A stretch of 64,000 nt of DNA. It comes from an uncultured Pseudomonadales bacterium (GTDB taxonomy: Bacteria; Patescibacteriota; Microgenomatia; UBA1400; UBA12108). A program made the translations under genes and the position numbers. Shown here piece after piece: positions 5,498 to 47,821 of the stretch. How positions within the stretch are numbered: the first letter of the stretch is position 1; every line of letters starts with the position of its first letter. Under the pieces are notes generated by a model. It was not told the origin of the DNA. It did not search any database and saw nothing but the letters and a program-made list of their open reading frames with translations. The stretch lies in the NCBI GenBank assembly GCA_964507925.1, contig CAZDRB010000001.1, forward strand, positions 15,072 through 79,071, written 5' to 3'.

Positions 5498-6048
5498 AGA
5501 CCAAGATCCTCGGCAATCGACTGCATAGCGGCGAGAACTGTCGGAACATGCTCCTCCCACAGGTCAACTCCGAGCTCGCGAGCCCCCTGCTCTACTTCTT
5601 GTCGATTTACTCCCTGCGCAAAGCTCTTGTCTTTCCATTTTTTCTTGATACTTTTGACTTCGACGTCCGCAATTTTTTTACTTGGTCGGACAAGTGCAGT
5701 TGTCGTGATCAGTCCTGTAATTTCGTCGCAAGCAAAGAGAGCTTTTTCCATGAGAGTGTCGCGAGATACTCCGGTACGAGGAGCGTGTGACTGGATCGCA
5801 CGTATAATTTCCTCGTCGACCCCGCGCTCTCGGAGGATTGGGGCGCCTTTTGCAGGATGCCCATCTAGGTCAGGATGGATCTCCCAGTCAAAATCGTGTA
5901 GGAGACCGGTCACGCGATATTTTTCTTCGTCTTCGCCAAATTTTTTGGCATAGGCTACCATCGCCGCCTCGACTGCAAGCATGTGGCGGACTAGATTCTC
6001 GTTTTTGACAAATTCGCGAACAATTTTTAGCGCGTCATCACGATTCAT
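5494..6048 (-). CDS. HD-domain phosphohydrolase (HDIG/YqeK-like)
   Basis: RHMLAVE ... GLLHDFD motifs (H..HD). 184 aa. Confidence 0.7.
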   Translation of the reverse strand: MNRDDALKIVREFVKNENLVRHMLAVEAAMVAYAKKFGEDEEKYRVTGLLHDFDWEIHPDLDGHPAKGAPILRERGVDEEIIRAIQSHAPRTGVSRDTLMEKALFACDEITGLITTTALVRPSKKIADVEVKSIKKKWKDKSFAQGVNRQEVEQGARELGVDLWEEHVPTVLAAMQSIAEDLGL

Positions 6049-6440
6049 ATTTCCTCCGGTATAAAAAATTCTGTTTGAATATTGTCAGGGTCTCTAAATG
6101 CGATATAAGGATATTTCCCAGCAAATTTTTCTATTCCTATTGTTGGAACTTTCATTTCTCTTAACCTATGTTCCAACAATTTAAGATCGGTCATAGATTT
6201 TACATGAAAGGCAATATGATCTAGGCCGATGCGTTTTTCGTCAAATCTATCTTTTGCAAGTTCTTGCCATTGCACAAACCAACAGGGAATTCCGACCGAT
6301 AGGAGACTGAAAGAGTTTGTATCATCCATCTTTATTTTGAGCTGAAATAATTTTTCGTAAAACGATCTAGTGACAGAGATATCGCTCACAGTGAGTGTGG
6401 TGTGCGCTATCCCGTCGAAAGTTAAGTTGTCGTCCTGCAT
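6045..6440 (-). CDS. VOC/glyoxalase-bleomycin resistance family protein
   Basis: HTTLTVSDISVTRSFYEKLF ... GLDHIAFHV, typical glyoxalase-fold metal-binding pattern. Start moved to MQDDNLTF (ATG at 6440); the 5' extension in the track lacks similarity. Confidence 0.6.
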   Translation of the reverse strand: MQDDNLTFDGIAHTTLTVSDISVTRSFYEKLFQLKIKMDDTNSFSLLSVGIPCWFVQWQELAKDRFDEKRIGLDHIAFHVKSMTDLKLLEHRLREMKVPTIGIEKFAGKYPYIAFRDPDNIQTEFFIPEEI

Positions 6441-6480
6441 AGTGATTTCCTTATACTTAAATACTGTATAGTATTTTAGT

Positions 6481-6948
6481 TTATTTGTTTGGGGTTCTAT
6501 CTTTGGAGAATAGTGTAGCATGTCGAGAGCGTTTTCGGAGCGGCTTGTCCAGTCTGTCGATGAGTGCCTCGAGAGCAAAATAACTGGGATATCTGTTCTT
6601 AAGGTTATATAAATCATTCGACTTTTTGAGTTTTTGCTCCTCTTGATGAAGTTTTTTTACAACCGATATTACTTCTGGATAATCTTCAAGGTGGGTGCTA
6701 ATCTTGGCAATCGTTGGATCGGTTACTCTCGTGACGTTACGAATGGTGCGATAATCATAACCCTCGGTCAGCATCTTGGCTATTTGAACTCTTTTGGCAA
6801 GCATTATGATTTCTGTCCGAGAAAGAAGGGCCTTGAGCAATCCCTCCATTTCGTTCTTGGTATCTACGAGTGAAAAAGCTCTCCAAAGATTACCAATAAA
6901 CCAATCGAGGATATTTCTTTTTACTTTGAACTTACTTACTTTTGTCAT
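6481..6948 (-). CDS. TrpR-like DNA-binding protein, YerC/YecD family
   Basis: EIIMLAKRVQIAKMLTEGYDYRTIRNVTRVTDPTIAKIS resembles the B. subtilis YerC core (EIQSLAQRLVVAQML..G.TY..I...TGAS.ATISR). Confidence 0.6.
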   Translation of the reverse strand: MTKVSKFKVKRNILDWFIGNLWRAFSLVDTKNEMEGLLKALLSRTEIIMLAKRVQIAKMLTEGYDYRTIRNVTRVTDPTIAKISTHLEDYPEVISVVKKLHQEEQKLKKSNDLYNLKNRYPSYFALEALIDRLDKPLRKRSRHATLFSKDRTPNK

Positions 6949-7026
6949 TTTTTTATACTTAATTACTATAAAGTATTTTAGTATAAAGAACTGATAGTTG
7001 GTAAATAATTACTATAAACTGGATGA

Positions 7027-7806
7027 CTATAATGGGTTGGGGACGTCGATAAATTCCACTTCGAGGTTATCTTTGAAATGGGCTTTGAGTTTTTTACCTA
7101 GTTCTTGCACCCCGAATACTTCGGTCGCGTAGTGACCGCAGAGAAAATAGCTGATCCCTTCTTCCTGCATGGCGTGAAGTCTAGATTCCGAAGATTCTCC
7201 TGATATATAGAGCTCGACACCTTTTGCTTTCATTTCCTCGATATTAGCCTGATAAGGTTTACCTGCTCCTGAGACTATACCAATGGTTTGGACCTTGTCA
7301 GCCCCAGCTTTGATCGCGAGAACGTCGTGAGAAAAAATCTTGGCGCATTTTTCTGAGAGATCATTAAGATCAGTTGGCTTTGGTAATTTGGCGACAAAGC
7401 CCCATTCGTCATAGAGTGTGTCAATAATCTTAGCTCCTAAGAGCTTGGCAATTGTGGCGTTGTTGCCAAATTCTTTTTGGGCATCAAGCGCGTAGTGATA
7501 GTCAGCAATAGTTAGATCATTTTTAATAATCAAAGACAATCTCTCTTGACTACTTTTAGAGTATCGTGAACCTACGGTGCGAGTGTCAAAACCGTGGTGA
7601 AAAATACAGTACTGTGCTTGTGCATTGATTGCCTCTCGCAAAAAATCACTATTAAGACTTACTCCTAGTGCGACTTTCTTGACCTCCATCGATCCATGGA
7701 ATTGAATGCCATTAGCCGCATACTCATCAACTTTTCTTGCCTTGGCCAAGAAATCTTGACCGATAGTATTCTCGATAAAAGTAGTAAGCTCGTCACGTAA
7801 GACCAT
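7027..7806 (-). CDS. Nif3-family dinuclear metal-centre protein (GTP cyclohydrolase 1 type 2 homolog)
   Basis: YCIFHHGFD (cf. Nif3 THHP metal site) and C-terminal FLCGHYATEVFG (Nif3 GHYxSE motif). Start at MVLRDELTTF; overlaps the lysS 3' end. Confidence 0.65.
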   Translation of the reverse strand: MVLRDELTTFIENTIGQDFLAKARKVDEYAANGIQFHGSMEVKKVALGVSLNSDFLREAINAQAQYCIFHHGFDTRTVGSRYSKSSQERLSLIIKNDLTIADYHYALDAQKEFGNNATIAKLLGAKIIDTLYDEWGFVAKLPKPTDLNDLSEKCAKIFSHDVLAIKAGADKVQTIGIVSGAGKPYQANIEEMKAKGVELYISGESSESRLHAMQEEGISYFLCGHYATEVFGVQELGKKLKAHFKDNLEVEFIDVPNPL

Positions 7807-9295
7807 AAATTTCCTTTGTGAGCTTGGAAACATGTCTTTTCATCTGTGGGAATAGTGTTCCTTCGCGGGCAGTGACGTTTTCCAAAAACCAAAATACACG
7901 CTCGCTATGCCCGTATCCACTAGTTGGTGGCATGCCGTATTCGAGCATCTCAACATAATCTATATCTAACATCTGCGCTTCGTCGTCTCCAGCGTCACGG
8001 GCGGACTGTTGTTCCTGGAAGCGTGCAAGTTGCTCAGCCGGATCATTGAGCTCGCTATAACCATTGCCTAACTCTGATCCCGCAATAATCACATGAAAGC
8101 GCTCGGTCAGTTCAGGATTTTCGGACTTGGACTTTGCAAGTGGGGACATAAACTTGGGTTCGTTGACAAGAAATGCCGGCCCGGCAATGTCCTTGCGGAT
8201 TATTTTCCAGAGATTGTCGATGAGTCGCGGCTTACCGACCTTGCCGTCTAACTTGACCTTGTATTTATGAAGAACTTTGACCATCTTACTCTCGTCATCG
8301 CTAAAAATATCGATCCCGAGTTTATCCAAGATTAAAGTTCTATAATCTAGCTCTTCCCATTCCTTGGCTAGGTCAAAGGAATGCTCTCCACGCGTAAACT
8401 TGGTGGTGCCATATACTTTTTTGGCAACATGACGAAACATGTTTTTTACGAGCTCCATGTTTTGGCGATAGTCGGCATAAGCCCAGTACCACTCTAGTTG
8501 ATAAAATTCTTGGAGGTGCTCGTCGTCTATACCCTCGTTGCGAAAATTGGGAGCTAGCGTATAGATTTTTTCAAATCCGCCGCCAATTAATCTTTTTTGA
8601 TATAGCTCGGTCGAGATACGCATATAAAATTTTTCGTCGAGGGCGTTGTGATAAGTCTCAAAAGGCCGCGCGTCTGCTCCACCTGTCACGTGCTCGAGTA
8701 CCGGCGTCTCTATCTCTAGGAATCCATTTTGCGCCATATACTCGCGCGAAACTGCCCAGAACTTGGCTTTTCTTTCAAATAGTGCACGTCTGCCCTCACT
8801 CATCACCAAGTCTAGATAGCGACGACGAAAGATCGTGTCCGGGTCTTTGAGCCCCTCCCAGCTGTCAGGCAAAGGGCGGATCGATTTTGAGAGTAGCTTG
8901 AGCTCTTTGACGTCCAGTGAGACCGCGCCAGTTTTACTTTTGCAGACCACGCCCATTGCTTGGACAAAGTCACCGACATCAATCAGGCTAAGCTCGGGAA
9001 ACCCGAGATTACCTGTTTTTTTGCTAGTTGGTGAGAGCAAGCTCTCCCTCAACAGGAGCTGAATTTTGCCGGATTGATCTTCTAGGTCACCAAACGCTAG
9101 CTTGCCGTGCTTGCGAAGAGCGCGGAGTCTGCCTGCCAAGGTTATTTCTTTTCCGTCGTACTTATCAAATCCATCTACAATCGCGCCATTTGAAAGATCT
9201 TTTTGCGACTGAGCGGGGTAGGGAGAGATACCGAGTTCGACCAACTTTTTGAGCTTCCCGATCCGCTCATTTCTGATTTCTTCTAGTCTAGACAT
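7793..9295 (-). CDS. lysS: Lysyl-tRNA synthetase (class II)
   Basis: 500 aa. N-terminal OB-fold, FRNEGIDDEHLQEFYQLEWYWAY (motif 2), C-terminal GMPPTSGYGHSERVFWFL (motif 3). Confidence 0.9.
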   Translation of the reverse strand: MSRLEEIRNERIGKLKKLVELGISPYPAQSQKDLSNGAIVDGFDKYDGKEITLAGRLRALRKHGKLAFGDLEDQSGKIQLLLRESLLSPTSKKTGNLGFPELSLIDVGDFVQAMGVVCKSKTGAVSLDVKELKLLSKSIRPLPDSWEGLKDPDTIFRRRYLDLVMSEGRRALFERKAKFWAVSREYMAQNGFLEIETPVLEHVTGGADARPFETYHNALDEKFYMRISTELYQKRLIGGGFEKIYTLAPNFRNEGIDDEHLQEFYQLEWYWAYADYRQNMELVKNMFRHVAKKVYGTTKFTRGEHSFDLAKEWEELDYRTLILDKLGIDIFSDDESKMVKVLHKYKVKLDGKVGKPRLIDNLWKIIRKDIAGPAFLVNEPKFMSPLAKSKSENPELTERFHVIIAGSELGNGYSELNDPAEQLARFQEQQSARDAGDDEAQMLDIDYVEMLEYGMPPTSGYGHSERVFWFLENVTAREGTLFPQMKRHVSKLTKEIYGLT

Positions 9296-12643: not shown

Positions 12644-13309
12644 TCACCAGTCAATTGATTGTTGCCCGTGAGCCTCGAGATATGAGTTGCACTGGGAAAA
12701 TGGTTTGGAGCCAAAAAATCCTGAATAGGCGGAGAAAGGCGAGGGATGAGGAGACTTGATTACGAGGTGTTTGGACTCATCGATCACGCTGCCCTTTTTT
12801 TGGGCATATGCTCCCCAAAGAATAAAGACTAGATTTTCTTTTTGCTCGGACAAGGACCTGATCACTGCGTCGGTAAAGCGCTCCCAGCCGATGTTCTGGT
12901 GGGAACCGGGAGAACTTTTTTTGACTGTGAGCGTCGCATTGAGAAGGAGTACACCTTGAGTTGCCCACGACTGGAGATCTCCTCCTGTAACTCTAGATTT
13001 ACGCCCGAGATCGGACTCGATTTCTTTGTAGATATTTTGGAGTGAGGGAGGGAGCTTGACACCTGAGCTGACCGCAAAAGCTAGGCCATTGGCTTGTCCC
13101 TCACCATGGTAGGGATCTTGGCCGATGATCACGACCTTGACCTGCTCGAAGGGCGTGAGCTCAAAGGCGCGAAAGATAAATTTTGGCGGTGGGTAAACGG
13201 TTGATGCGAGATATTTTGACTTGACGAACTCAGCTAGTTTTTGAAAATAATCCTGATTAAACTCTGACTCTAGTACCTTTTTCCAGCTTGGCTCGATTTT
13301 GACATTCAT
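12644..13309 (-). CDS. ung: Uracil-DNA glycosylase (family 1)
   Basis: GQDPYHGEGQANGLAF and HPSPFSAYSGFFG motifs. Start at MNVKIEPSWKK (ATG at 13309). Confidence 0.85.
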   Translation of the reverse strand: MNVKIEPSWKKVLESEFNQDYFQKLAEFVKSKYLASTVYPPPKFIFRAFELTPFEQVKVVIIGQDPYHGEGQANGLAFAVSSGVKLPPSLQNIYKEIESDLGRKSRVTGGDLQSWATQGVLLLNATLTVKKSSPGSHQNIGWERFTDAVIRSLSEQKENLVFILWGAYAQKKGSVIDESKHLVIKSPHPSPFSAYSGFFGSKPFSQCNSYLEAHGQQSIDW

Positions 13310-13374
13310 GTTGTATATGTTATCACTGAGGATCCATGGTTGACAGTATATATATCTCATAGTATTATCTCAAC

Positions 13375-14184
13375 ATGAAATTAGGATTCATCGAAACATT
13401 AGGAGGCTTATATAACAATAGCCTTGAACCATTCTCTCTTAAAAACAAGTTGGACACTTTCCAAAGTTTATATGGAGTTAGGCCGTCGCCATTTTTGATA
13501 GACAACCCAGTAAGAGAAATTTCCTTAACCGAGCTTTCCCCTTCAATCCACGCGTTTGTAGAAAGTTTTACAGATTCAGGAGAATTTAATCGAAGCTTAA
13601 CAGACTATTTGAATAGATCTGAAGCTGGTTCTCATCTCAATCCCAGAGAGTTTTCTTTAGTTGCTCATTCTGGACCTAGCACTAGTATTTCCCCACCGTA
13701 TGACACATTCTTTATGGATGGAGCGTCTGGCTTAATACTCACTTATGGTAAACCTAAAGATCGAAATTCTGTAATTGCATCGGTAGATCCACTATTCAGG
13801 GTAAATCAATCTAATAGAATGTCCCAAACTAATCATGACTACAAAGACATTGTTATTAATCAGTTACAAGGACCACTGAAAAATTTTTCGAACCCAGAGT
13901 TTAGAAAAATTTTTACTAGCTTTAGATGGGAACATTTACTTGTAGATTGTCTTGTGTCCTGGGCCTGGTACGCTGGTTTACAAAGATTATTACTTTTACC
14001 ATCATATTATAATTATTATGGCAAAGTGAAAAGAAACGAAAATGGAAGCGCAATTATGAGATATGATGTGACAGCGGAGCGACGTGGATTTAGACGTACT
14101 AAAGAAACCGAAGCATACTCAATATTGTTTGATCGAGGCATGGTGATAGAGGCCTACAAACAAATGTTTGGCCAACAATCCTGA
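13375..14184 (+). CDS. Hypothetical protein (269 aa), Ser/Asn-rich, no recognisable domain
   Basis: Long ORF with the -10 hexamer TAGTAT at 13356-13361 upstream; island cargo. Confidence 0.5.
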   Translation: MKLGFIETLGGLYNNSLEPFSLKNKLDTFQSLYGVRPSPFLIDNPVREISLTELSPSIHAFVESFTDSGEFNRSLTDYLNRSEAGSHLNPREFSLVAHSGPSTSISPPYDTFFMDGASGLILTYGKPKDRNSVIASVDPLFRVNQSNRMSQTNHDYKDIVINQLQGPLKNFSNPEFRKIFTSFRWEHLLVDCLVSWAWYAGLQRLLLLPSYYNYYGKVKRNENGSAIMRYDVTAERRGFRRTKETEAYSILFDRGMVIEAYKQMFGQQS

Positions 14185-14277
14185 GTCCTTGTTTGTAAAT
14201 TAGGCTTATACCATCTCAATTGTAGCCATCAGATTTATTATTGATATCTGAATTCATGCATGCGATATAATGAATTT

Positions 14278-14814
14278 ATGGCAGATTACATTGTTCTTCA
14301 TGGTAGTGGTGGCATAGACATGTGGATACCATGGTTAGAAAAAGAACTGAAAAGTAAAGCTTCTGATGTATGGGTACCGACACTTCCTGATCCTGGTGAG
14401 CCAGATCTCAAGAAGCAGCTTCCGTTTTTGCTGGAGAGCAACAAGATAGGTCCAGAGTCAACTATTATTGGACACTCCGCATCTTGTCCGCTGATTTTGA
14501 GCTTACTAGAAAACTTGGATATAACTGTAAAAAAAGTTGTCCTCGTTGCTGGATATAATAAGCCATTGATAAATAGTGTGTCTGATCCAATTTTGCAAGA
14601 TAGTTACAACTGGGAGAAGATAAAGAAAGCTGCTAAAGAGTTTGTTTTTGTAGTATCAGACAATGATCCGTGGGGGTGTGGAGAGGAGATGAATAGACCG
14701 ATATTCGAACAAGTAGGTGGCACTTTCGTCATTGTTCATGACGGAGGACATTTTGGATCTAATACTTTTAAGAAACCGCTGTACGAATTCCCTCTTTTAC
14801 TGGGCTTGATTTAG
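14278..14814 (+). CDS. RBBP9/YdeN-like alpha/beta serine hydrolase
   Basis: IVLHGSGG ... IIGHSASCP (GHSxS nucleophile elbow) ... VSDNDPWG ... HDGGHF (Ser-Asp-His triad order of PF06821). Start at MADYIV (ATG 14278); TTGATA at 14241, TATAAT at 14266, 6 nt, then ATG. Confidence 0.6.
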   Translation: MADYIVLHGSGGIDMWIPWLEKELKSKASDVWVPTLPDPGEPDLKKQLPFLLESNKIGPESTIIGHSASCPLILSLLENLDITVKKVVLVAGYNKPLINSVSDPILQDSYNWEKIKKAAKEFVFVVSDNDPWGCGEEMNRPIFEQVGGTFVIVHDGGHFGSNTFKKPLYEFPLLLGLI

Positions 14815-15291
14815 TTGCTTATCTATTCCCCCCTCTACCTCAGTCCCAAAGGTGACAAGGAGCTTGTCGCTGGGATTAATTGTTTGAGTGAGGGCGTTGG
14901 GGTTCTCGACTCCGTTCACGAAAAATCTCAATGTCCCGCTATCGCCTGTGCAAAATGTTTGGCCAGTACCCGTGGTTAGACACTCATTCGTCAGCTTCAT
15001 CGGGAGAGTAGAGAAAAAGTCGCCCCACGTAGTTCCCTGCTTTTTGACTTTGATCAGGCTCGGATTATCTGCCTCTATATATACGTCGGGGGAGAGATTG
15101 TGATATTTGGGATCGCTAAAAAACCTTAACGTTTGGTGAGTATAGATAGTAAATGATGCCTGTATGTCTAACTCTGAAATGATTACTTCTTTCGGGCTTG
15201 AACCTGAGGACATGTCTTGAGTTTTTTTGCTGGTGAAATATGTGAGCCCTGCGATAGCAAGAGCGAAGATGAGGAAAATTTTGAGTTTCAT
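14797..15291 (-). CDS. Secreted protein of unknown function; paralog of the 32527..33036 product
   Basis: Signal peptide MKLKIFLIFALAIAGLTYF. Shared blocks with 32527..33036: ASFTIYTHQT / AGFRVYVDD, KKQGTTWGDFFSTL / HRSGATWGDLFKNI, FFVNGVENPNA / GYVDGELVENV. Confidence 0.5.
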   Translation of the reverse strand: MKLKIFLIFALAIAGLTYFTSKKTQDMSSGSSPKEVIISELDIQASFTIYTHQTLRFFSDPKYHNLSPDVYIEADNPSLIKVKKQGTTWGDFFSTLPMKLTNECLTTGTGQTFCTGDSGTLRFFVNGVENPNALTQTINPSDKLLVTFGTEVEGGIDKQLNQAQ

Positions 15292-15315
15292 AAATAGTAT
15301 TATACTAGGGTATAT

Positions 15316-15594
15316 ATGGATACAAAATCGAATGAGCTACTTTTAACTGAGATCCGCAAGCTGGCTGAGGCTGTGACCAAGCTCAACAAGCACCAATCTG
15401 CCTGGTACTCATTTGGGCGTGGGATTATGTCAGCTCTGGGGTATTTTGTAGGAGCAGCAATATTGGTTGGCGTCATCGTATATCTTTTGCAGAGAGTAGA
15501 TCTCGTTCCGATTATTGGGGAATGGCTTGGGGGAGTGATCAACGAGACAATCAAGAACTCTATGGGCAATCAATTAATGTTTCCGAATAAGTGA
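15316..15594 (+). CDS. Small membrane protein (92 aa), hypothetical
   Basis: One TM helix (GIMSALGYFVGAAILVGVIVYLL). Its stop codon is the first nucleotides of repeat copy 1. Confidence 0.4.
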   Translation: MDTKSNELLLTEIRKLAEAVTKLNKHQSAWYSFGRGIMSALGYFVGAAILVGVIVYLLQRVDLVPIIGEWLGGVINETIKNSMGNQLMFPNK

Positions 15595-15697
15595 CCCTAG
15601 ACCTTCCGCATCCAAACCGCCTTATCACACATCTGATTGATCTATATAACCTATTCGCTCCAGATATGAGAATATCATCGGTAGCTATATCCTTCTA
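15591..15697 (+). repeat. 107-nt direct repeat, copy 1 (gtgaccctagaccttccgcatccaaaccg ... ggtagctatatccttcta)
   Basis: Hand alignment to 16128..16234: equal length, about two-thirds identical ungapped, with strongly conserved 5' (first 30 nt about 26/30) and 3' ends. Confidence 0.6.
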
Positions 15698-15758
15698 ATG
15701 TTTCAAATCATAATTTCATAGTGACCTTGAGATAGATACTCCCCTAGTCTGGTAAAAT

Positions 15759-16097
15759 GTGGAAATGAGTCAAGAGGTAAGAACTGATATGGAAGATGCC
15801 TGGGCATCAGCCATAGCTCAGCAAGCAGAGGAAGTAATTGAAGAAGGTGCAATTGTAGTAGTGCAGGATGATCCATATACTTGGAGATATAGATCTGACC
15901 ATCCTTTACATAAACACCCTCATATATTTAGGGATGGCCAAGAAGAAGGTGAGCCAAACCTACTGATTAGAGATGTAGATGGAAGTTTTAATGTTGTAAC
16001 ATTACTAAACATTACTTTAGCAATGACTAGACACACAAATAGAGATGTCCACTTAGTGAACGATGAAAATGACGTATTAAATTTACTGAACGGTTAA
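15759..16097 (+). CDS. Hypothetical acidic protein (112 aa) between the two 107-nt repeats
   Basis: ORF with GTG at 15759 or ATG at 15765 (MSQEV). TAAAAT at 15753, 6 nt, then the ATG at 15765. No domain recognised. Confidence 0.4.
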   Translation: MEMSQEVRTDMEDAWASAIAQQAEEVIEEGAIVVVQDDPYTWRYRSDHPLHKHPHIFRDGQEEGEPNLLIRDVDGSFNVVTLLNITLAMTRHTNRDVHLVNDENDVLNLLNG

Positions 16098-16127
16098 TTG
16101 CAAAAATACGTTGATATATAGGTTAAT

Positions 16128-16234
16128 GTGACCCTAGAACTTCCAGATCCAAACCGTATTATATCTAATCTGCTAGAGATTTTCGATCTGTTCAACCCAT
16201 TCATAAAATCACCAGGGTTGGCTATATCCTCTTA
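16128..16234 (+). repeat. 107-nt direct repeat, copy 2 (gtgaccctagaacttccagatccaaaccg ... ggttggctatatcctctta)
   Basis: See copy 1. Begins 30 nt after the stop of the 15759..16097 ORF. Confidence 0.6.
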
Positions 16235-16245
16235 GATTATCAAAC

Positions 16246-16539
16246 CTATTTATCCTTGCACAACGCTAAACACACCCCATTGTTGTTGTAACACCACGGA
16301 TCGCCCTTGCTATATGGACCCTTGCTTGCAGTTCGAGTTCCCAAATAGTGTCTATCATCACAGCTGCCGTTTTTCGGAGGTACTCCCATTTTAATACACT
16401 CATCGTAACAAAACTGATAGTTCGTCTTTGATTTCGGACCTCTAACTGAGTAAATAAGGCCGGATAAAGCCAAGATTAAAAGAGCGCCAGTAGCAACTAC
16501 CTTAATCACATTGTCAAAATTTAACTTAATAGAGCTCAT
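16246..16539 (-). CDS. Small cysteine-rich secreted/membrane-anchored protein (97 aa, 6 Cys)
   Basis: N-terminal signal anchor (VVATGALLILALSGLIY), then QFCYDECIKMGVPPKNGSCDDRHYLGTRTASKGPYSKGDPWCYNNNGVCLALC with 6 Cys in a ~50 aa module. Confidence 0.5.
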   Translation of the reverse strand: MSSIKLNFDNVIKVVATGALLILALSGLIYSVRGPKSKTNYQFCYDECIKMGVPPKNGSCDDRHYLGTRTASKGPYSKGDPWCYNNNGVCLALCKDK

Positions 16540-16569
16540 GGTGTAAGTATATACCTCCTCAACGATGGA

Positions 16570-17118
16570 TTATCCTAATAAGTCAAATGGATGTGATGGG
16601 AGTTCCATGCTTCCATACATTCGCTCGAGCTCAGCATACATTTTGTGGAAGAGGCGCTCACCCAAATCAAGACACATTTGTTCAATAATTGGAAAAGAGC
16701 TAATTTCAAATTTGGAGTTTGTAACCTGTATCCCCAATCCTTTTGTTGGTGGATATCCAGGCATATTTGTTACTCCAGGAGGTACGATCTCAACACGTCG
16801 ATACATACTATCGCTATGAGCTACAGTTTGGTCTCTATGGGCAATGATTTGGTAGTGAAGTGTTTGATATCTCAGGTTTGTATATCCTGGCCATGTACTA
16901 TCAAGCGGTCTACCATATGGGCGATTAGACTTAAACGCACGTGAGTATGCGCTTATTATATTGTCCTGAAGGTGTAAAAAACCCTCATCTTTGATGGACT
17001 TAACTGTTCTTAAAAATAATCTAGTTGTGTATAGCGCCTCAGCAATGTCTTGATGAGCAATGGCCAGCTTGTATAGAGAAATTCTTTCTTCCTCTGATAC
17101 ACCAGGATGACTAATCAT
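16570..17118 (-). CDS. Hypothetical protein (182 aa), no recognisable domain
   Basis: Clean ORF divergently arranged with the 587 aa ORF. Island cargo. Confidence 0.5.
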   Translation of the reverse strand: MISHPGVSEEERISLYKLAIAHQDIAEALYTTRLFLRTVKSIKDEGFLHLQDNIISAYSRAFKSNRPYGRPLDSTWPGYTNLRYQTLHYQIIAHRDQTVAHSDSMYRRVEIVPPGVTNMPGYPPTKGLGIQVTNSKFEISSFPIIEQMCLDLGERLFHKMYAELERMYGSMELPSHPFDLLG

Positions 17119-17189
17119 ATTTGTACTATTCTACAACTGATGAAAACAAAGTCATCTTTACCCAATGCTTGGCATATAATTAGCTTTAT

Positions 17190-18953
17190 ATGTCAAAGGC
17201 TATAGATTTATTTCACTCTGTTAGCATGCAGAGCCGCATGTCGCCTGAGAACAGCTCTGCGATAAAAACACTACAACAATCAGCAGAAGCTTTTGAGTTT
17301 GAAGGCAATTATTTCTCGGCTGGTTATACCTACTCAACAATAGTGATGTCTCTTATGGGGCGGCATGTGAACACATACCCATACATCAATAAAGCTGATG
17401 AGTGTTACGACAAGTGCCTATCAAATCCTCACAACCATGTGCTTGAAAAAATAGCATGTCTCAAAAAGAAAATTAACGTGTTATCCGAGTACTCATGGAT
17501 GTTTAGGCACACTGAAAAAGAAATGTTGGACATAAAAACTGAACAAACGAAATTAGCAAGTCAGATTGAGACAATAATATCGAAGGAGTTTTCGGGTACC
17601 CCAGATGCAGGTAAGTATCTTGTTCATGGATTCCAGATTAATACAAATCTGGATGGTAAATGGTGGCAAACTTTCACAAATTGGGAAACTGATGCTGACT
17701 CAGAGCAGTTTGGTGGAGGAACAATAACTATAAATATAGCCTCAGCGTTTACCCTTAGAGTTGCTCTGGTTGACTACGCCGGTGCAAACGAAATCGCAGA
17801 TAAATATCCTGATTTTTTTATATCACCCGGACTAAAAGGATGGAAGGAGGCCGTTAAAGGTTTTTGTTTTCCAGAACAGGCAGACTTCTACTTTGAAAAA
17901 GCATCAACAATTTTTAACAGTGATAATAAGCCGCCAGAGGTTTTGAGCAATCACGGAGGACACTGGTCATCAAAAAATTGGGAGTTGTGGGGCACTTATT
18001 TTCGGTCTAGAGCAGAACTAGCACTAGCACGTAAAGATAAAGTTCATGTTAGGGAACATATCTTTCGTGCTTCAGAGATAATTGGCAAAGAGACCTTACA
18101 TTGGATTGACGAAGGTGTATCGAGATATCGCATCCTGGTTAAAGCGCTTGCAATACTACTTTCAGATAACTCAGAAATTTCCTTGAGTGAAGTAAGAAAA
18201 ATGTTTGAGTACGAGACGTATTTAAGCCACGCTTCTCACTACGATCATTTAATCGACGAGTTTATCTCGGGTACCAATTATGCATTGGATAACTTTAGAA
18301 AACATCCAGAGAGAGAGTTTACAGAAGGTAATCTTGCAAGAGCACTTACCGCCTTTGACAAAATTCCGATTATGGACAGTGGTTTAGTTGATGCAATACG
18401 ACCTCGCCTAGAGGAGCGTGCCCATGATGCGATATTTGGAGTACACAAAACCTGGATAGCTCGTACACTCGAAACAATATCAGATGAAGATGTTTTGCGT
18501 AAAGTAGTTCTTAAGTTAGTTCAGGCTTCGTTGCCAATTTACGCACAAATTATCCACGGCCCAACTGAACTAGGTACTGACATAGTTGCACTAGTAAAAA
18601 TTGACGAAGTGCTAATACTTAAACAATATCAGGTGAAATGCGGCAACATTACTAAGGCGAAATGGCCTGGTATAAAAGAGCAGTTAGAGGAAATATTTGA
18701 TGTAAAAGATAGACCATCTCTACCAGAAAATAGTAAAAACGCAAAAAAAATAGGCATATTGATATACAACGGTCATCCTAACCCCATAACTTCTCCGGTA
18801 ATAAACAGTTGGTTTGAAGTACAAAAAACAGAAAGGGATAGGCAATATGAGCATATACATCTAGATGCTTTTGTTAATTGGATCATCGAAGATAAGCTAT
18901 TGACCGAGTTTAGACAGGTCCTAACACAGCTCAATGTCCCCATTACAGAGTAG
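17190..18953 (+). CDS. Hypothetical protein (587 aa), no recognisable domain (no Walker, HNH, HEPN or PLD motif seen)
   Basis: Long uninterrupted ORF with TATAAT at 17175, about 9 nt before the ATG. Largest cargo gene of the island. Confidence 0.6.
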   Translation: MSKAIDLFHSVSMQSRMSPENSSAIKTLQQSAEAFEFEGNYFSAGYTYSTIVMSLMGRHVNTYPYINKADECYDKCLSNPHNHVLEKIACLKKKINVLSEYSWMFRHTEKEMLDIKTEQTKLASQIETIISKEFSGTPDAGKYLVHGFQINTNLDGKWWQTFTNWETDADSEQFGGGTITINIASAFTLRVALVDYAGANEIADKYPDFFISPGLKGWKEAVKGFCFPEQADFYFEKASTIFNSDNKPPEVLSNHGGHWSSKNWELWGTYFRSRAELALARKDKVHVREHIFRASEIIGKETLHWIDEGVSRYRILVKALAILLSDNSEISLSEVRKMFEYETYLSHASHYDHLIDEFISGTNYALDNFRKHPEREFTEGNLARALTAFDKIPIMDSGLVDAIRPRLEERAHDAIFGVHKTWIARTLETISDEDVLRKVVLKLVQASLPIYAQIIHGPTELGTDIVALVKIDEVLILKQYQVKCGNITKAKWPGIKEQLEEIFDVKDRPSLPENSKNAKKIGILIYNGHPNPITSPVINSWFEVQKTERDRQYEHIHLDAFVNWIIEDKLLTEFRQVLTQLNVPITE

Positions 18954-19019
18954 GATCTCCTTAGATTTGTGTTCTATTAGACTCTACGTATACTATTAGA
19001 AAACAGGGAAATAACAGCG

Positions 19020-19304
19020 ATGGCAAAATCGAGCACCAGTTATCAATCAGGCCAAACAGGAAATCCTAAAGGCAGGCCTGCAAAGGGCTACTCAATAACA
19101 GAGATGTTTAGGAGTATGCTAGATAGCGACAGTGAGATGCGAGAAAAACTAGCTAAAGTGATCCTGCGAAAGGCATTAGATGGTGATATGGCTGCCTGTC
19201 GCCTTATCTGGTCATACATGGATGGGTTGCCGACAAACAAAATATCAATTACTGAACTCCCAAGACCACTCCCCCTTCTTGGCGGAGTCACATCTGAAAA
19301 CTAA
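19020..19304 (+). CDS. DUF5681-like phage/integrative-element protein
   Basis: N-terminal QSGQTGNPKGRPAKG matches the conserved SGNPxGRPKG signature of DUF5681 proteins from phages and integrative elements. Confidence 0.55.
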   Translation: MAKSSTSYQSGQTGNPKGRPAKGYSITEMFRSMLDSDSEMREKLAKVILRKALDGDMAACRLIWSYMDGLPTNKISITELPRPLPLLGGVTSEN

Positions 19305-19513
19305 TCACGGATTTTTCTGTTGTCTTTTTCTTGCTTAACACTATTACGACCATATAGGGTCAGAAATAGAACTGTACCAATACACGCCACAACTAAACCT
19401 AGAAATAGAAAAGAAAACACACTGAGTGCTAGATTGATCATGCTTACCTCCTTACCTGGATAATAACATAAATATATACCAGCAGTAAGTCGACCAAGAG
19501 TAAGGATTTTCAT
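19301..19513 (-). CDS. Small membrane protein (70 aa), hypothetical
   Basis: Single TM (LALSVFSFLFLGLVVACIGTVLFLTLY). Overlaps the DUF5681 stop by 4 nt. Confidence 0.35.
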   Translation of the reverse strand: MKILTLGRLTAGIYLCYYPGKEVSMINLALSVFSFLFLGLVVACIGTVLFLTLYGRNSVKQEKDNRKIRD

Positions 19514-19521
19514 AACCTTAA

Positions 19522-19737
19522 GTGGTTATGAGTAAATCAATATATCTTCAAGTCGGTAAGCGGATACAAGAGCTACGTCGAAAGAAGGGTGTGACTCAAG
19601 AAAAGCTCGCATTAGATGCTGGTTTGAACCGCGCCTACATAGGCTACATCGAGCGAGGAGAACGTAGTCCCTCGGTACTCACTCTCTTTAGGATAGCCAG
19701 ATCACTCAAAATTAAACTTTACGAGCTATTTATCTAA
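19522..19737 (+). CDS. XRE-family helix-turn-helix transcriptional regulator (Cro/CI-type)
   Basis: QELRRKKGVTQEKLALDAGLNRAYIGYIERGERSPSVLTLFRIARSL is a textbook HTH_3/XRE fold. Confidence 0.8.
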   Translation: MVMSKSIYLQVGKRIQELRRKKGVTQEKLALDAGLNRAYIGYIERGERSPSVLTLFRIARSLKIKLYELFI

Positions 19738-19813
19738 AAACTTGACTCTGATTAAATTTTTCTGTTAGCCTGGATGTAAGTTAATCATTATTGGTACCAA
19801 ACTCCCTACGTGG

Positions 19814-19866
19814 AACGGTGCTTTCAACTTTTCGCTAGATAGCGAGATCTTGAGGCACCGTTTTTT
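19814..19866 (+). terminator. Compound hairpin (AACGGTGC ... GCACCGTT with inner TCGCTA-gat-AGCGA) followed by a T-run
   Basis: Read directly. Lies between the XRE gene and the recombinase gene. Could be a terminator or a recombinase regulatory element. Confidence 0.35.
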
Positions 19867-20052
19867 GTTGTATGACAATAAAACAAGCAAGAAAAATACT
19901 TGGAAAAATGGCAGACGGGATAGCTGATGAGGTTATCCAAGCCGACATTGAAGTGGCTGAGTTTTTTACATCCATTTTTTTCGATCACATACGTTACGGT
20001 GGACACGATGGGGTGGTGCATCCACAACAAACGTGCCATAATTAGGCACTAT

Positions 20053-21582
20053 ATGACACGTAGAGCTGTTATTTACATACGGGTATCCGATCAGTCACAA
20101 ATCGAAAACAATAGCCTAGAAAGCCAGCTGAAGACTTGTGACGCATTTGCGAAGCAGAGTGGTTACGAAGTCATCAAGATATATCGTGAAGAGGGTAAAT
20201 CTGCCAAGGAGGTTTTTACAAGAGAGAAACTCAAAGAGTTAATGTCGTTTTGTTTGGTAAAAGCAAATCACATAGATGCGATGATCGTATACAAATACGA
20301 TCGATTCAGTCGAAACTCTGCCGATGGCCAAGCAGCGATTGCACTATTGGCTAAGGCTGGTGTGGATGTGATATCTGCCACCGAGGGAGCAGAAGATAAT
20401 CCAAGTGGAAGAGCCATGCGTACGATTTTACTAGCTTTAGCACAGCTAGATAACGAGATAAAGGGCGAGCGAGTACATGACAATATGCAGGCCGTCTTTC
20501 GAAAAGGGTTCTGGCCATTTAAATGCCCAGTCGGATACAAGAGATTTTCAAGAAACAAAGAGGAAAACATGGGGATTCCTCCTTTAGTTGATAAGCACTT
20601 GGGACCCATTGTGACAGAGATGTTCAAGAACGCCGCAAGCGGTATCTACTCTAAGGAACAACTAGCCAGGATGATGAACAGCCAAGGTTTTGGTGACCAT
20701 TATCGTGCCAAATCTACACACAAGATTGTCGATAGCATTTTACGCAAGACTTTTTACTATGGTGAGATGTATGGACCAAAGTGGAAGGAACGGGTATGGG
20801 GTAAGCATGAGCCATTAACCGATAAAGAAACTTGGGAGTTAGCATACAACAGAGTCATATTAAAAAAGAAAAACTATGTCTACCAGGACGAAGCAAAATA
20901 TCCCCTTAAAGGGCATCTACGTTGTAGTGAGTGTGGTGCGCCGCTCACCACGTCACCATCTACTGGACGTAGTAAAAAGTACTACTACTATGAGTGTCGC
21001 AGCAAGTCATGCAAAAAGATCAGGACGCTTGCTGACGACGCGCATAAGCAGTTTGAGTTGATATTAGAACAAATCAAGCCTTCCCCTAGAGTACTACGCC
21101 TTTTCGATAGCACTGTCTTTTCTACATGGGATAAGGAAATCGCTCGCTCCGAAGCGTCACTCGAAAAAGCAGATCAACACCTTTTGACGCTCAAAAATGA
21201 CATTACAAATATACGTAAGTCTGTAGATAATGGACTATTAACGATGGAGGAGGGAAAAGAACAGATTGAGATAGTTAGGCAAAACATCGCCGTTGCTGAG
21301 ATTGAGAAGGCAGATATTAAGTGTAGTCATTATGATAAGGAAGTTGTGAGAAACTTTACTCGCTCATTTTTAGAAAATATTGATGGACTATGGCGAGACA
21401 TGAACTTATCAAAGAAGCAGGCTTTTCTCGCTCTCATTTTTCCAAACGGCATCTTATGTGATAACAACCGAAAAATCCGAACCGATCAATTGTCCCCATC
21501 CTTCGAGCTAATTGTGGCTCTTAGTGAGCAAAAAGGTGAAAATGTGACCCCACAGGGAATCGAACCCTGGTTAGCAGAATGA
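20053..21582 (+). CDS. Large serine recombinase (resolvase-type catalytic domain + recombinase domain + zinc ribbon)
   Basis: AVIYIRVSDQSQ (catalytic Ser region), YKYDRFSRN, recombinase domain, CSECGAPL ... YECRSKSC zinc ribbon, C-terminal coiled coil. Start at MTRRAVIYIRVSD (ATG 20053). The last 38 nt overlap tRNA-Glu on the opposite strand. Confidence 0.85.
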   Translation: MTRRAVIYIRVSDQSQIENNSLESQLKTCDAFAKQSGYEVIKIYREEGKSAKEVFTREKLKELMSFCLVKANHIDAMIVYKYDRFSRNSADGQAAIALLAKAGVDVISATEGAEDNPSGRAMRTILLALAQLDNEIKGERVHDNMQAVFRKGFWPFKCPVGYKRFSRNKEENMGIPPLVDKHLGPIVTEMFKNAASGIYSKEQLARMMNSQGFGDHYRAKSTHKIVDSILRKTFYYGEMYGPKWKERVWGKHEPLTDKETWELAYNRVILKKKNYVYQDEAKYPLKGHLRCSECGAPLTTSPSTGRSKKYYYYECRSKSCKKIRTLADDAHKQFELILEQIKPSPRVLRLFDSTVFSTWDKEIARSEASLEKADQHLLTLKNDITNIRKSVDNGLLTMEEGKEQIEIVRQNIAVAEIEKADIKCSHYDKEVVRNFTRSFLENIDGLWRDMNLSKKQAFLALIFPNGILCDNNRKIRTDQLSPSFELIVALSEQKGENVTPQGIEPWLAE

Positions 21583-21616
21583 GAATCTGCTGTCCTAGCC
21601 ACTAGACGATGGGGCC
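21545..21616 (-). tRNA. tRNA-Glu (anticodon CUC)
   Basis: Hand-folded: acceptor GGCCCCA/TGGGGTC, D-arm GTCT-AGTGGCTAG-GGAC, anticodon stem GCAGA/TCTGC with loop TTCTCAT (U33, CUC, A37), T-arm CAGGG-TTCGATT-CCCTG, discriminator A. No encoded CCA. Confidence 0.85.
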
Positions 21617-45024: not shown

Positions 45025-45098
45025 TGGTTGCCGGGCTAGGATTCGAACCTAGAAGACGACATTCAGAGTGTCGCATGATACCATTTCATCACTCGGCA
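45025..45098 (-). tRNA. tRNA-Gln (anticodon CUG), CCA encoded
   Basis: Hand-folded: acceptor TGCCGAG/CCCGGCA (one A6-C67 mismatch), D-arm ATGA-AATGGTA-TCAT, anticodon stem CGACA/TGTCG with loop CTCTGAA (U33, CUG, A37), T-arm CTAGG-TTCGAAT-CCTAG, discriminator A, then CCA. Confidence 0.8.
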
Positions 45099-45499: not shown

Positions 45500-45503
45500 T
45501 CTT

Positions 45504-46118
45504 ATGAGGATACAGGAGATTTACGAGAAATATCAGATTATGCCCCAGCTCGTGACGCATATGCTCAGGGTTGCGGGAGTTGGAATAAAGATCCTCGAGG
45601 GGTGGAGTGATGAGATAGACCAAGGACTAGTGACCAAAGCACTACTTCTTCATGATATGGGCAATCTAGTCAAGTTTGATTTATCAAAGAATTTGATGCC
45701 GATCGAGAATATTGAGAAGTGGAAAATCTTGCAATCGGAATGGAGAGAAAAGTATGGTAGCGACGCATACCAGGCGACAATGAAGATTATGGACGAGCTA
45801 GGGGAGAAAGAGGTCGCAACAATTCTCGAGGAGGAGCATGCAGGATATTATGCTGGAGATACTGGACTCATCATCAAGCAGTCGTGGCCGGCCAAGATCC
45901 TCGCATACGCTGATATGCGTGTCACGCCTGCCGGAGTGGTGCCACTAGTCGAGCGCATCGCTGACCTTCATTCTAGGTATGGGGGTGAGATTGCTTGGTA
46001 TGGATTTTTGTATGAACTTGAGGTAGATATTAAACGAATGACGATAACTGATCTTGCCGCCATTACCGAAAAAGAAATATTGCCAAGTATTGACAACTTA
46101 TTAAAGTTGGTGATATAG
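45504..46118 (+). CDS. HD-domain phosphohydrolase
   Basis: HMLRVAG ... LLLHDMGN ... EEEHAGYY ... AYADMRV (H..HD..H..H..D). 204 aa. Confidence 0.7.
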   Translation: MRIQEIYEKYQIMPQLVTHMLRVAGVGIKILEGWSDEIDQGLVTKALLLHDMGNLVKFDLSKNLMPIENIEKWKILQSEWREKYGSDAYQATMKIMDELGEKEVATILEEEHAGYYAGDTGLIIKQSWPAKILAYADMRVTPAGVVPLVERIADLHSRYGGEIAWYGFLYELEVDIKRMTITDLAAITEKEILPSIDNLLKLVI

Positions 46119-46129
46119 TTCCAGAAATT

Positions 46130-46372
46130 AATAAAAAGGCGTTACAGTTTGGTTTCCCGCCAAACGAGCTGAGTACGATGAGTACTACGGAAGTCAACCG
46201 TAAAATACGACAAAGCGTGTCGGCAACGGAGCGCAGATAATAAGCAATAGCTTACATACTGACTCCACCGCAAGGTGGTTTTTTTGTAAGCTAACGGAAG
46301 CAAGGTGGTACCACGAGCTAACCTCGTCCTTGTCTATCAGATAATTCTGGTGGGCGAAGACGAGGTTTTTTT
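46130..46372 (+). promoter_or_regulatory. T-box riboswitch leader (predicted tRNA-Pro-responsive) with canonical antiterminator/terminator
   Basis: T-box sequence AAGGUGGUACCACGAG (46302-46317). Helix A1 CAAGG/CCUUG, 7-nt bulge UGGUACC, helix A2 ACGAG/CUCGU. Competing terminator CCUCGUC (46322-28) / GACGAGG (46359-65) plus U7. Upstream hairpin CCACC-GCAA-GGUGG (stem III-like). Operon encodes proline synthesis and ProRS. Confidence 0.65.
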
Positions 46373-46414
46373 ATTAGAGAAACACTAAAAAAATATATAA
46401 AGGAGATAAGTAAT

Positions 46415-47473: not shown

Positions 47474-47474
47474 T

Positions 47475-47810
47475 ATGACAATATACGATGATTTTGTAAA
47501 GCTCGATATACGCGTGGGCAAGATAGTGGCGCTCGAGGACTTCCCAGAAGCAAAGAAGCCTGCATATAAACTGAAAATAGATTTTGGCGCTGAGATCGGC
47601 ACTAAAGTATCTAGTGCTCAGCTGGTCAAGCATTACACCAAAGAAGAGCTTGTGGGCAAAATGGTCATGGGAGTGGTTAACTTTCCTCCCCGCCAGATCG
47701 GACCATTCCAGTCAGAAGTACTCACGCTCGGAGTGCCCGACGAGACTCACGAGTGTATACTGGTAGTGCCAGATAAAAATGAAGCAATAATCGGTGGAAA
47801 ATTATTTTAA
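47475..47810 (+). CDS. tRNA-binding domain protein (CsaA/Trbp111-like)
   Basis: DFVKLDIRVGKIVALEDFPEAKKPAYKLKIDFG ... LVVPD is the EMAP/tRNA-binding OB fold. 111 aa, 1 nt after the ocd stop. Confidence 0.75.
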   Translation: MTIYDDFVKLDIRVGKIVALEDFPEAKKPAYKLKIDFGAEIGTKVSSAQLVKHYTKEELVGKMVMGVVNFPPRQIGPFQSEVLTLGVPDETHECILVVPDKNEAIIGGKLF

Positions 47811-47821
47811 AAAGGAGAATT

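Follow-up and report, generated by a model that had tools for sequence, protein, structure and literature searches.

How much of a low-G+C stretch that ends on a tRNA gene was brought there by its own recombinase, and how was the junction with the tRNA made? This question is raised by positions 13375-21616 of a 64-kb window (the whole stretch of DNA analysed here, 64,000 nt of contig CAZDRB010000001.1 from assembly GCA_964507925.1), where the interval between ung and the gene for tRNA-Glu(CUC) closes with a large serine recombinase (LSR). An earlier note on this DNA had taken the interval as a single 8.2-kb island reaching from ung to the tRNA gene. That extent was not borne out, as the left attachment (att) sites are at 16128 and 15591, not beside ung. 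The att-bounded element is 16128-21550, 5.4 kb in length, and 13375-15590, about 40% of the supposed cargo at 13375-18953, lies outside it. We consider it probable that an LSR of a Patescibacteria-wide family inserted this element at the extreme 3' end of the tRNA gene and that the att site of the free element (attP) is situated within the integrase gene (int) itself.

Serine integrases recombine attP with the host site attB, and excision requires a directionality factor. The identity of the window recombinase was examined with Pfam and PHROG profiles, which confirm the serine recombinase proposed in the earlier note. Its Resolvase, Recombinase and Zn_ribbon_recom domains were recognized at 1.7e-28, 3.7e-8 and 3.5e-7, respectively, and it matches the phrog_95 integrase profile at 7e-74. 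R10, S12 and D13 of the catalytic-site motif YIRVSD are invariant in 42 homologues, as are Q16, R84, R87 and the zinc-ribbon residues C291, C294, C315 and C320; D83 is present in the window LSR (D83-R84-x-x-R87 motif). The protein is intact with its catalytic residues kept, and a remnant without the catalytic serine, which the earlier note had named as grounds for giving up its reading, is excluded. In an AlphaFold2 (AF2) model of a homologue in the longer form described below (predicted local distance difference test score, pLDDT, of 85.7), long helices at 349-396 and 402-425 are inserted after the zinc ribbon as a coiled coil. Every sequence criterion that was tested places the window element among the LSR elements. 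Homologues fall into 121 clusters, 106 of which are at 43-62% identity and about 500-540 aa in length; the few named ones are labelled Patescibacteria or Beckwithbacteria. A metagenome scan with the LSR returned 80 loci, and an IMG/VR scan with the integrase alignment returned no relative.

The right junction, at 21544, reads GTGACCCCACAGGG.... Since the LSR stop codon is at 21580-21582, the open reading frame (ORF) overlaps tRNA-Glu by 38 nt, exactly as the earlier note had it, and its proposal of a serine-recombinase element at the tRNA-Glu 3' end is supported by the same layout in more than 100 Patescibacteria homologues. The last 12 residues of the LSR are read from the antisense strand of the tRNA (V498, then T499-E509, TPQGIEPWLAE). 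Nearly all C-termini in the family end in ...NVTP-x-G-[F/I/V/L]-E-P-xxxx, the antisense of the tRNA T-arm, and some continue with ...PRPLDDGA, the antisense of the whole tRNA. The register is fixed in the 80 metagenome loci: the 3' end of the opposite-strand tRNA is always 36 nt past a conserved CTAAT. In the main family, taken as homologues with 44% identity or more on contigs that include their 3' end, automatic tRNA calling gave 22 tRNA-Glu, 2 tRNA-Arg(CCT), 1 tRNA-Ile(TAT) and 1 tRNA-Lys(CTT); by other evidence, 6 more read through or abut tRNA-Glu and 4 contigs stop inside a tRNA-type tail. Relatives at 25-33% identity are found at Met, Ala, Tyr, Lys or Glu tRNAs.

Across loci the tRNA bodies vary, and their differences in the acceptor, T and anticodon stems are compensatory, which indicates that each tRNA is host DNA. 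No displaced tRNA fragment was detected in the 64-kb window by local alignment (best score 24, chance level) or in the 10 kb upstream of 29 loci (chance-level scores only). With host tRNAs and no second copy, island formation in the style of tyrosine integrases is excluded. The earlier note had also reported no long direct repeat between the left and right junctions (attL and attR), and repeat and local-alignment searches agree that none derived from the tRNA is present; such a repeat is missing because the crossover is tiny and the shared core is only the 7-bp GTGACCC. Direct and inverted repeat searches over 12-23 kb gave nothing convincing among the top 20 and 25 families, which do not include the 45-nt repeat at 15591/16128.

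A search for att cores at the junctions, as the earlier note had suggested, located GTGACCC at 15591, 16128 and 21544, so that the same heptamer opens both left sites and the right junction. The sequence from 15591, directly past the DUF5665 stop, reads GTGACCCTAGACCTTCCGCATCCAAACCGCC..., and that from 16128 reads GTGACCCTAGAACTTCCAGATCCAAACCGTA... (copies A and B, respectively). The DUF5665 stop codon TGA (15592-15594) is itself inside the core of copy A (15591-15597). With an nhmmer profile made from these two window copies, the left site was recovered from no fewer than 15 further loci, in each case upstream of int and on the same strand (L091, L099, L143, L123, L124, L162, L092, L084, L097, L113, L098, L089, L101, L090 and L111). 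About seven loci stand out with E-values down to 5e-5, and roughly half have only weak values (0.02-4); the printed alignment has a conserved 60 nt common to all of these loci, including those with weak E-values. The left flanks of the sites are unrelated between loci. Elements delimited in this manner are 3.5-9 kb long and start exactly at the conserved site, which in L162 occupies the intergenic gap between a host-side gene and the first gene of the element.

The point of exchange was bracketed by comparing the two junctions, which share only GTGACCC. Position -1 already differs, being host DNA in attL and int in attR. In L097, an element at tRNA-Ile, attR has GTGAGCC versus GTGACCC in attL, so position 4 already belongs to the respective right-hand partner. 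The exchange thus appears to fall within GTGA (21544-21547, tRNA positions 74-71), with GT, TG or GA as candidate central dinucleotides. If so, the whole tRNA body stays host DNA and intact. Eight attL sites retain a host TG, the complement of the encoded CCA end, that is absent from attR; integration therefore removes the encoded C75-A76 of the tRNA in those hosts. The TG-retaining sites include those of L091, L099, L143, L162, L092, L084 and L097, and the occupied tRNA there is followed by ATTTTC.

The right-hand arms carry a further signature. All 28 tRNA arms examined have the T-loop motif GAACC at offset 18, counted from the start of the core, and GAACC, AAACC or ACACC is at offset 23 in 19 of 19 element arms (14 by regular expression and 5 read from printed sequences), AAACC being the form in copy B. 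In characterised LSRs the motif bound by the zinc-ribbon domain is 5 bp nearer the centre in attB than in attP (PMC3783163), and the right-hand arms here display this published offset. No comparable motif was seen in the left-hand arms (P and B).

The left site is also a coding sequence. Read as GTG ACC CTA..., it encodes a peptide of 34-38 residues in every copy, with the consensus VTLsLPHPNQIIsDLvDLFNTFxPDxRxLg.... Variability at the three codon positions within the site is 0.27/0.16/0.42 versus 0.56-0.60 in the flanks. The copies in L091 and L099 differ at 23 nt and in only 6 aa, with Ser codons swapped between AGT and TCG. A hidden Markov model (HMM) of the peptide, searched in six frames of the 64-kb window, found exactly two copies, A (E=4e-20, frame +2) and B (E=3e-17). 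The frame of this tail is that of int (...GAA AAT GTG ACC), and the int ORF and the site at 16128, once joined, read as one uninterrupted protein of 532 aa. Long forms with the tail fused occur naturally: P0034 (532 aa), P0043 (531), P0056 (536) and P0098 (536). Their tails match the two window sites at 2e-8 and 1e-6 by tblastn, copy A being matched by those of P0056 and P0034. Since the site is coding and in frame with int, attP is placed within int, 35 codons before its stop. As read from these sequences, integration swaps a 35-aa tail for tRNA-antisense residues up to a chance stop and converts a 532-aa protein into one of 509 aa. Neither frame nor length is constant among the tRNA-derived tails (GIEP, GIRTP, read-through), which argues that they are not selected. 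The "classic layout" invoked in the earlier note is thus too weak a description, as attP is within the integrase ORF and the C-terminus is altered by integration. The encoded tails end in hydrophobic residues (..NFAV, ..NLAV, ..AYSY, ..AISS), which is at most suggestive of a degradation tag. In the AF2 model of the long form, the tail is a single helix at residues 509-535 with pLDDT falling from 78 to 38.

We propose that integration splits off the last 35 codons of int, which would remain as a tail ORF at attL on the far end of the element, and that the integrated int then reads into the tRNA antisense strand until it meets a chance stop. The predicted attP is ...GGTGAAAAT-GTGACCC-TAGAACTTCC... 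and the predicted attB ...CCGAATAA-GTGACCC-CACAGGGAATCGAACCC.... A circular form would have the junction ...AGCAAAAAGGTGAAAAT-GTGACCC-TAGAACTTCCAGATCCAAACCG.... Loss of the inner element would leave the empty site ...ATATAGGTTAAT-GTGACCC-CACAGGGAATCGAACCC..., and loss of both units ...TTTCCGAATAA-GTGACCC-CACAGGGAATCG.... In the predicted empty site, DUF5665 and tRNA-Glu would be convergent, their ends overlapping by a few bases. The zinc-ribbon domain would read the near-universal T-loop sequence, and this would explain the use of Glu, Arg, Ile, Lys, Met, Ala and Tyr tRNAs. With no conservation in the host-side left arm, a site already occupied could be hit again, and tandem arrays would result. 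The tail may confer integration competence on the unintegrated form, serve as a degradation tag or control directionality, possibilities suggested by analogy with the integration-dependent immunity of phage BPs. A broader idea combines two parts: that rewriting of the integrase C-terminus by integration is a control switch, and that T-loop-reading "any-tRNA" integrases build tandem cassette arrays. As a switch, the tail would make the free form competent for integration or short-lived and leave the integrated form stable or restricted to excision; as any-tRNA integrases, these enzymes would dispense with the host-side arm and produce arrays in the reduced genomes of Patescibacteria. We put this combined idea forward tentatively and regard it as rather unlikely as a whole.

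Several observations weigh against the proposed insertion and tail exchange. Neither an empty site nor a circular junction was found for the window element, and all window proteins are singletons at 90% identity. One scan of a genome collection found no close relative of the host; with MsrB, a poor choice of query, it gave only matches of at most 72% identity with no synteny and no tRNA. Look-ups with MsrB and o587 returned only contigs of the same sample (SRR5011273). L167, the sole long-form contig with enough context, is a tandem array and not a free circle, so that finding a long-form ORF in a database is no proof of a circular intermediate. The AF2 helix of the tail is of moderate to low confidence. 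The crossover bracket rests mainly on one locus, L097, and conservation of GAACC in the P' arm is confounded with coding for Pro-Asn-Gln. When the P' arm was compared with the reverse complement of the P arm, there was no excess over shuffles and no inverted symmetry. Conservation is also lacking in the host-side B arms, unlike what is typical of attB sites in characterised LSRs. Integrases of L118, L120, L125, P0080 and P0097 read the tRNA in another frame and have GIRTP tails, and in L111, L112, L127 and L089 no tRNA adjoins int. Tails of the type ...GDPxGIRTPD... mark a subgroup (L118, L120, L125, P0080, P0097 and P0100) in which the frame rule for the tail ORF may not hold.

We explored the possibility that 13375-21616 is nonetheless one island from ung to tRNA-Glu, all of it cargo of the integrase. 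Composition is consistent with this, and the lower G+C reported in the earlier note was reproduced: in 500-nt windows it is 0.37-0.42 over 13.3-21.5 kb versus 0.46-0.50 on both sides (about 0.40 for the island and 0.47 for the flanks), the lowest of the 64-kb window. The tetranucleotide z of 3.5-7.1 over 13-20.5 kb (2-kb windows) is likewise its strongest anomaly, although the background was taken without the island and inflates z slightly. The G+C at third codon positions (GC3) is 0.30 for o269 and 0.36 for Ser_hydrolase, near ung. However, the only att-type sites are at 15591 and 16128, and the sister elements start exactly at such a site. Between these sites and ung, o164 and DUF5665 (14797-15594) have a host-like GC3 of 0.51, whereas the genes from 15.7 kb onward are not host-like. 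None of the genes of 13375-15594 is present in any of the 80 related loci. A single island is accordingly very improbable. The segment with o269 and Ser_hydrolase (13375-14814) is compositionally foreign, lies outside any recognisable att site and is separated by two host-like genes from the att-bounded element; it could be an older or unrelated insertion. Still less credible, and in our judgement barely worth retaining, is the classical mechanism of tRNA islands, in which the element brings a tRNA 3' half, the crossover falls within the tRNA and the 38-nt overlap is element DNA. A tRNA-antisense integrase tail throughout the family and the resemblance of int-proximal sequences in L111 and L127 to degenerate tRNA 3' ends would fit it. 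It is opposed by the co-variation of tRNA 3' halves with host 5' halves, by the lack of a displaced fragment in the window or upstream in the 29 loci, by the restriction of attL/attR identity to GTGACCC and by tails whose differing frames and lengths speak against selection.

Two other explanations were weighed. In one, the boundaries are right but the exchange of tails has no function: the 35 codons would be kept as DNA, for example as a long P' arm or promoter, or as a micro-gene, and long forms would be accidental products of tandem insertion. The long form of L167 does stand in a tandem array, the site opens with GTG, a possible start codon, and more than 100 clusters contain intact integrases in the short, integrated form; arbitrary tails are evidently no obstacle to the core enzyme. 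Yet third-position variability and the AGT/TCG swaps point to selection on the protein, the stop is fixed at 34-38 codons, and in the main family the site and int share one frame. Nor is there a conserved ribosome-binding site, the upstream flank being unrelated host DNA, and an LSR half-site needs only about 25 bp (PMC3783163). We therefore consider a functionless exchange unlikely. Somewhat less unlikely, though still doubtful, is that the element is a fixed and decaying remnant of a defective prophage or satellite, immobile and with cargo that has effectively become host genes. Its 5.4 kb are without structural or replication genes, its integrase family has no IMG/VR relative, a 537-bp int-less remnant stands alongside and no population variant was recovered. 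On the other hand, int with its catalytic residues, the stop-free tail ORF, the XRE gene and the 57-aa ORF upstream of int are all intact, and a z of up to 7 marks the composition as still strongly foreign. The features of the locus are collected in Table 1.

Table 1. Features of the window from ung to tRNA-Glu(CUC), in order of position
Feature	Position	Strand	Evidence or remark
ung	12644-13360	-	Pfam UDG, 1.7e-19
Ser_hydrolase	14260-14814		Pfam PF06821
DUF5665	15316-15594		Pfam PF18910
Outer attL-like copy A: core GTGACCC 15591-15597, P'-type arm, 35-codon tail ORF VTLDLPHPNRLITHLIDLYNLFAPDMRISSVAISF*	15591-15698	+	nhmmer 1.2e-9
Body of int-less unit with o112	15699-16127	+	Between the two attL-like sites; whole unit 15591-16127, 537 bp
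o112, 112 aa	15759-16097		No family match
Inner attL copy B: core GTGACCC 16128-16134, P' arm, 35-codon tail ORF VTLELPDPNRIISNLLEIFDLFNPFIKSPGLAISS*	16128-16235	+	nhmmer 2.9e-10
Cargo o97, 97 aa	16246-16539	-	N-terminal membrane anchor and Cys-rich domain, by inspection only
Cargo o182, 182 aa	16570-17118	-	Divergent from o587
Cargo o587, 587 aa	17190-18953	+	Alpha-solenoid domain like tetratricopeptide repeats (TPR), about 1-445, and C-terminal domain
DUF5681 protein, 94 aa	19020-19304	+	Pfam PF18932, 3.6e-9; phrog_26239
70-aa ORF, membrane-like	19301-19513	-	Hydrophobic by inspection only
XRE-family helix-turn-helix (HTH) regulator, 71 aa	19522-19737	+	HTH_3, 5.5e-15; PHROG transcriptional regulators
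Conserved 57-aa ORF (MTIKQARKILGK...DIEVAE...)	19872-20045	+	Directly upstream of int
LSR, integrated short form, 509 aa from M20053	20053-21582	+	Pfam Resolvase, Recombinase and Zn_ribbon_recom
attR core GTGACCC	21544-21550	+	Complement of tRNA positions 74-68
Host tRNA-Glu(CUC), intact; B' arm	21545-21616	-	Rfam RF00005, 60.6 bits, positions 1-71 of 71; ARAGORN 21544-21616

The element was compared with systems that share some of its properties. Like the LSRs of A118/LI, Bxb1, phiC31 and SPbeta (SprA), the window enzyme has a resolvase domain, recombinase domain, zinc ribbon and coiled coil in this order, and it shares with characterised LSRs short att sites, a tiny identity core and the 5-bp offset of a distal motif between attP and attB (PMC3783163). 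Unlike them, it targets a tRNA 3' terminus, with relatives using at least seven tRNA species; its attP is apparently embedded in the int ORF so that integration alters the protein; and its host-side left arm is not conserved, with no visible P/P' symmetry. By their sequences, then, the tRNA 3' target, the unconserved host arm and the attP in int set these elements apart from characterised LSR elements. In mycobacteriophages BPs, Brujita and Charlie, attP is inside the repressor gene and integration removes a 33-residue tail that bears a degron (PMC4557955; Broussard et al. 2013). The two cases are alike in an attP near the 3' end of an ORF, the loss of about 33-35 C-terminal residues and a tRNA target, and the integrated and free forms here are likewise predicted to differ in their C-termini. 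In the phages, however, the repressor is split, the integrase is a tyrosine recombinase and the ssrA-like degron is proven, whereas here the serine integrase itself is split. SSV-type archaeal integrases also have the att site within the integrase gene and a tRNA target, but these are tyrosine recombinases whose gene is split into two large parts and inactivated (PMC8371274). In the window LSR, only the last 35 codons are exchanged and the full catalytic enzyme remains.

Among tycheposons, 27 of 937 have an LSR (bioRxiv 10.1101/2020.12.28.424599). Tycheposons and Islander-class islands resemble the elements described here as small cargo elements at tRNA 3' ends with arrays at one tRNA. Theirs regenerate the tRNA from a copy on the element and leave the displaced fragment as a direct repeat; here the recombinase is of the serine type, and the window and the 29 loci yielded no such fragment. 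Satellites like phage-inducible chromosomal islands (PICI) and their minimalist counterparts (PICMI) combine an integrase, a regulator and a gene for packaging redirection (terS or capsid) and depend on a helper. The sister elements of 3.5-3.9 kb, with int and a homologue of the terminase small subunit, are similar to these. The window element differs in that it carries a DUF5681 gene with no demonstrable relation to terS, and no helper phage is known. Our literature search found no direct precedent for LSRs at tRNA genes of the Candidate Phyla Radiation (CPR, Patescibacteria) or for an attP inside a serine integrase gene, and no account of the present CPR family; its coverage was incomplete, which makes it weak evidence of novelty.

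The mobile elements of Patescibacteria are poorly known. For one whole family of them, with more than 100 integrase clusters, the present analysis defines the exact ends, the rule of target choice and the conserved genes. In genome engineering, serine integrases are valued tools whose directionality control is an open problem. If integration does edit its own integrase, this would be a new form of control that can be tested by comparing the 532-aa and 509-aa proteins, and almost any genome would offer ready landing sites to an integrase that recognizes the T-loop and acceptor end. As a practical matter, an occupied att site can be recognized simply from a tRNA-antisense tail such as "...TPxG[FIVL]EP" on an annotated recombinase.

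The segment between copies A and B is a unit without int. Its o112 is in the same frame as site B, with two stop codons between them, and tblastn with the LSR family found no LSR remnant in the 537 bp beyond the tail peptides. Either an older tandem element has left this unit as its remnant, or the unit is a non-autonomous cassette. Doubled sites around int-less segments of 0.66-3 kb are also present in L123, L084 and L090. In L167 (1528-6609), where two LSR genes are in tandem, the first is of the long form and has the second unit's tail fused to it, so that arrays of these elements are directly documented. The doubled sites fit repeated insertion into an occupied site followed by decay of the older unit.

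We also examined the genes inside the element. The DUF5681 protein, small membrane-like ORF, XRE gene and large serine recombinase listed in the earlier note are all present, the recombinase with 509 aa. The note overlooked both the tail swap and the conserved 57-aa ORF directly upstream of int. Homologues of the latter (55-79 aa) are in the same position in 10 other loci (tblastn 1e-11 to 1e-17); it has no Pfam or PHROG match and would be the likeliest candidate for a directionality factor or regulator. XRE homologues occur in 14 of the 80 related loci and in 9 delimited elements. The DUF5681 protein had no tblastn match in 50,697 phage records and, by hhalign, no profile relation to the terS-like GP3_package of sister elements. 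The 70-aa ORF at 19301-19513 had no family match. The gene set of the 3.5-3.9-kb sister elements is int, a small ORF, a DUF7736 protein and the terminase-small-subunit homologue. This GP3_package protein of 135 aa (phrogs 3064, 309 and 606) is at least 90% identical in L092, L097, L098 and L101, and L167 has it as well, together with DUF7736. The elements with it are inserted at tRNA-Glu and tRNA-Ile and have the appearance of minimal phage satellites in Patescibacteria. An OLD-family nuclease and a ClpP-like protease are encoded in L162.

The earlier note had called the cargo uncharacterised and the likeliest place for a novel system. The first part stands, as o97, o182 and o587 match no known system; as to the second, no known or candidate defence system was found with PADLOC, the ten ORFs of 13375-19513 giving no match at E<=0.1 in PADLOC-DB 2.0. 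The cargo genes of the window are absent from all 80 related loci. For o97 there was no Pfam, PHROG or PADLOC match. A single homologue of o182 was found in 5.8 billion clusters (P0130, 51% identity, "Candidatus Microgenomates"), beside PhdYeFM, Gp49 and HTH genes of the toxin-antitoxin type. The AF2 model of o587 has a mean pLDDT of 74, with residues 1-445 modelled confidently as a solenoid and the C-terminal domain poorly. A near-invariant C-terminal motif, E460...D464...Q481-x-K483, resembles that of PD-(D/E)xK nucleases, and from this motif o587 may be a nuclease-type effector. Searches with Pfam (E<=10, 8 members), PADLOC, PHROGs and PDB sequence profiles gave nothing specific for o587, and Foldseek against the PDB gave generic TPR matches only, so the PD-(D/E)xK reading is without profile or fold support. 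This uncharacterised family has 445 representatives (E<=1e-3, 50% identity), about 60 of them full length, and consists of proteins of about 580 aa. Islands with its homologues contain UmuDC, SRAP, insertion sequence (IS) elements, DUF927, a FokI cleavage domain and TIR/TPR proteins. The family is thus found in mobile and defence-rich islands of unrelated bacteria (loci L165 and L166) and is worth a separate study.

Additional observations concern individual loci. The tRNA-less integrases of L111 (7893-10455) and L127 (1402-2131) are followed on the opposite strand by a 148-aa PLD-like (HxK) protein and an XRE gene, after which L111 has a 500-aa ORF. Their int-proximal sequence resembles a degenerate tRNA end or a P' arm, and both are probably decayed tandem junctions. 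A distant relative at 33% identity overlaps tRNA-Met and has a second, weakly similar tRNA-Met 10.6 kb upstream (L134, 136-208 and 10754-10825; L135, 859-931 and 11477-11548). These pairs are probably two different tRNA-Met genes rather than an att duplication. Two independent Logan contigs of SRR5011273, L164, which ends, and L001, which begins, at the same break near 20570 in the middle of int, may reflect strain variation or a second related copy of the integrase in the sample. In o112, XRE and the cupredoxin gene, L164 differs slightly from the window (about 99% identity). Elsewhere in the window, 6001-8000 and 45501-48000 are further compositional outliers (G+C 0.40-0.42, z 2.6-3.3), the latter just past tRNA-Gln(CUG) at 45025-45098; by inspection of translations only, its ORFs look like ordinary metabolic and translation genes.

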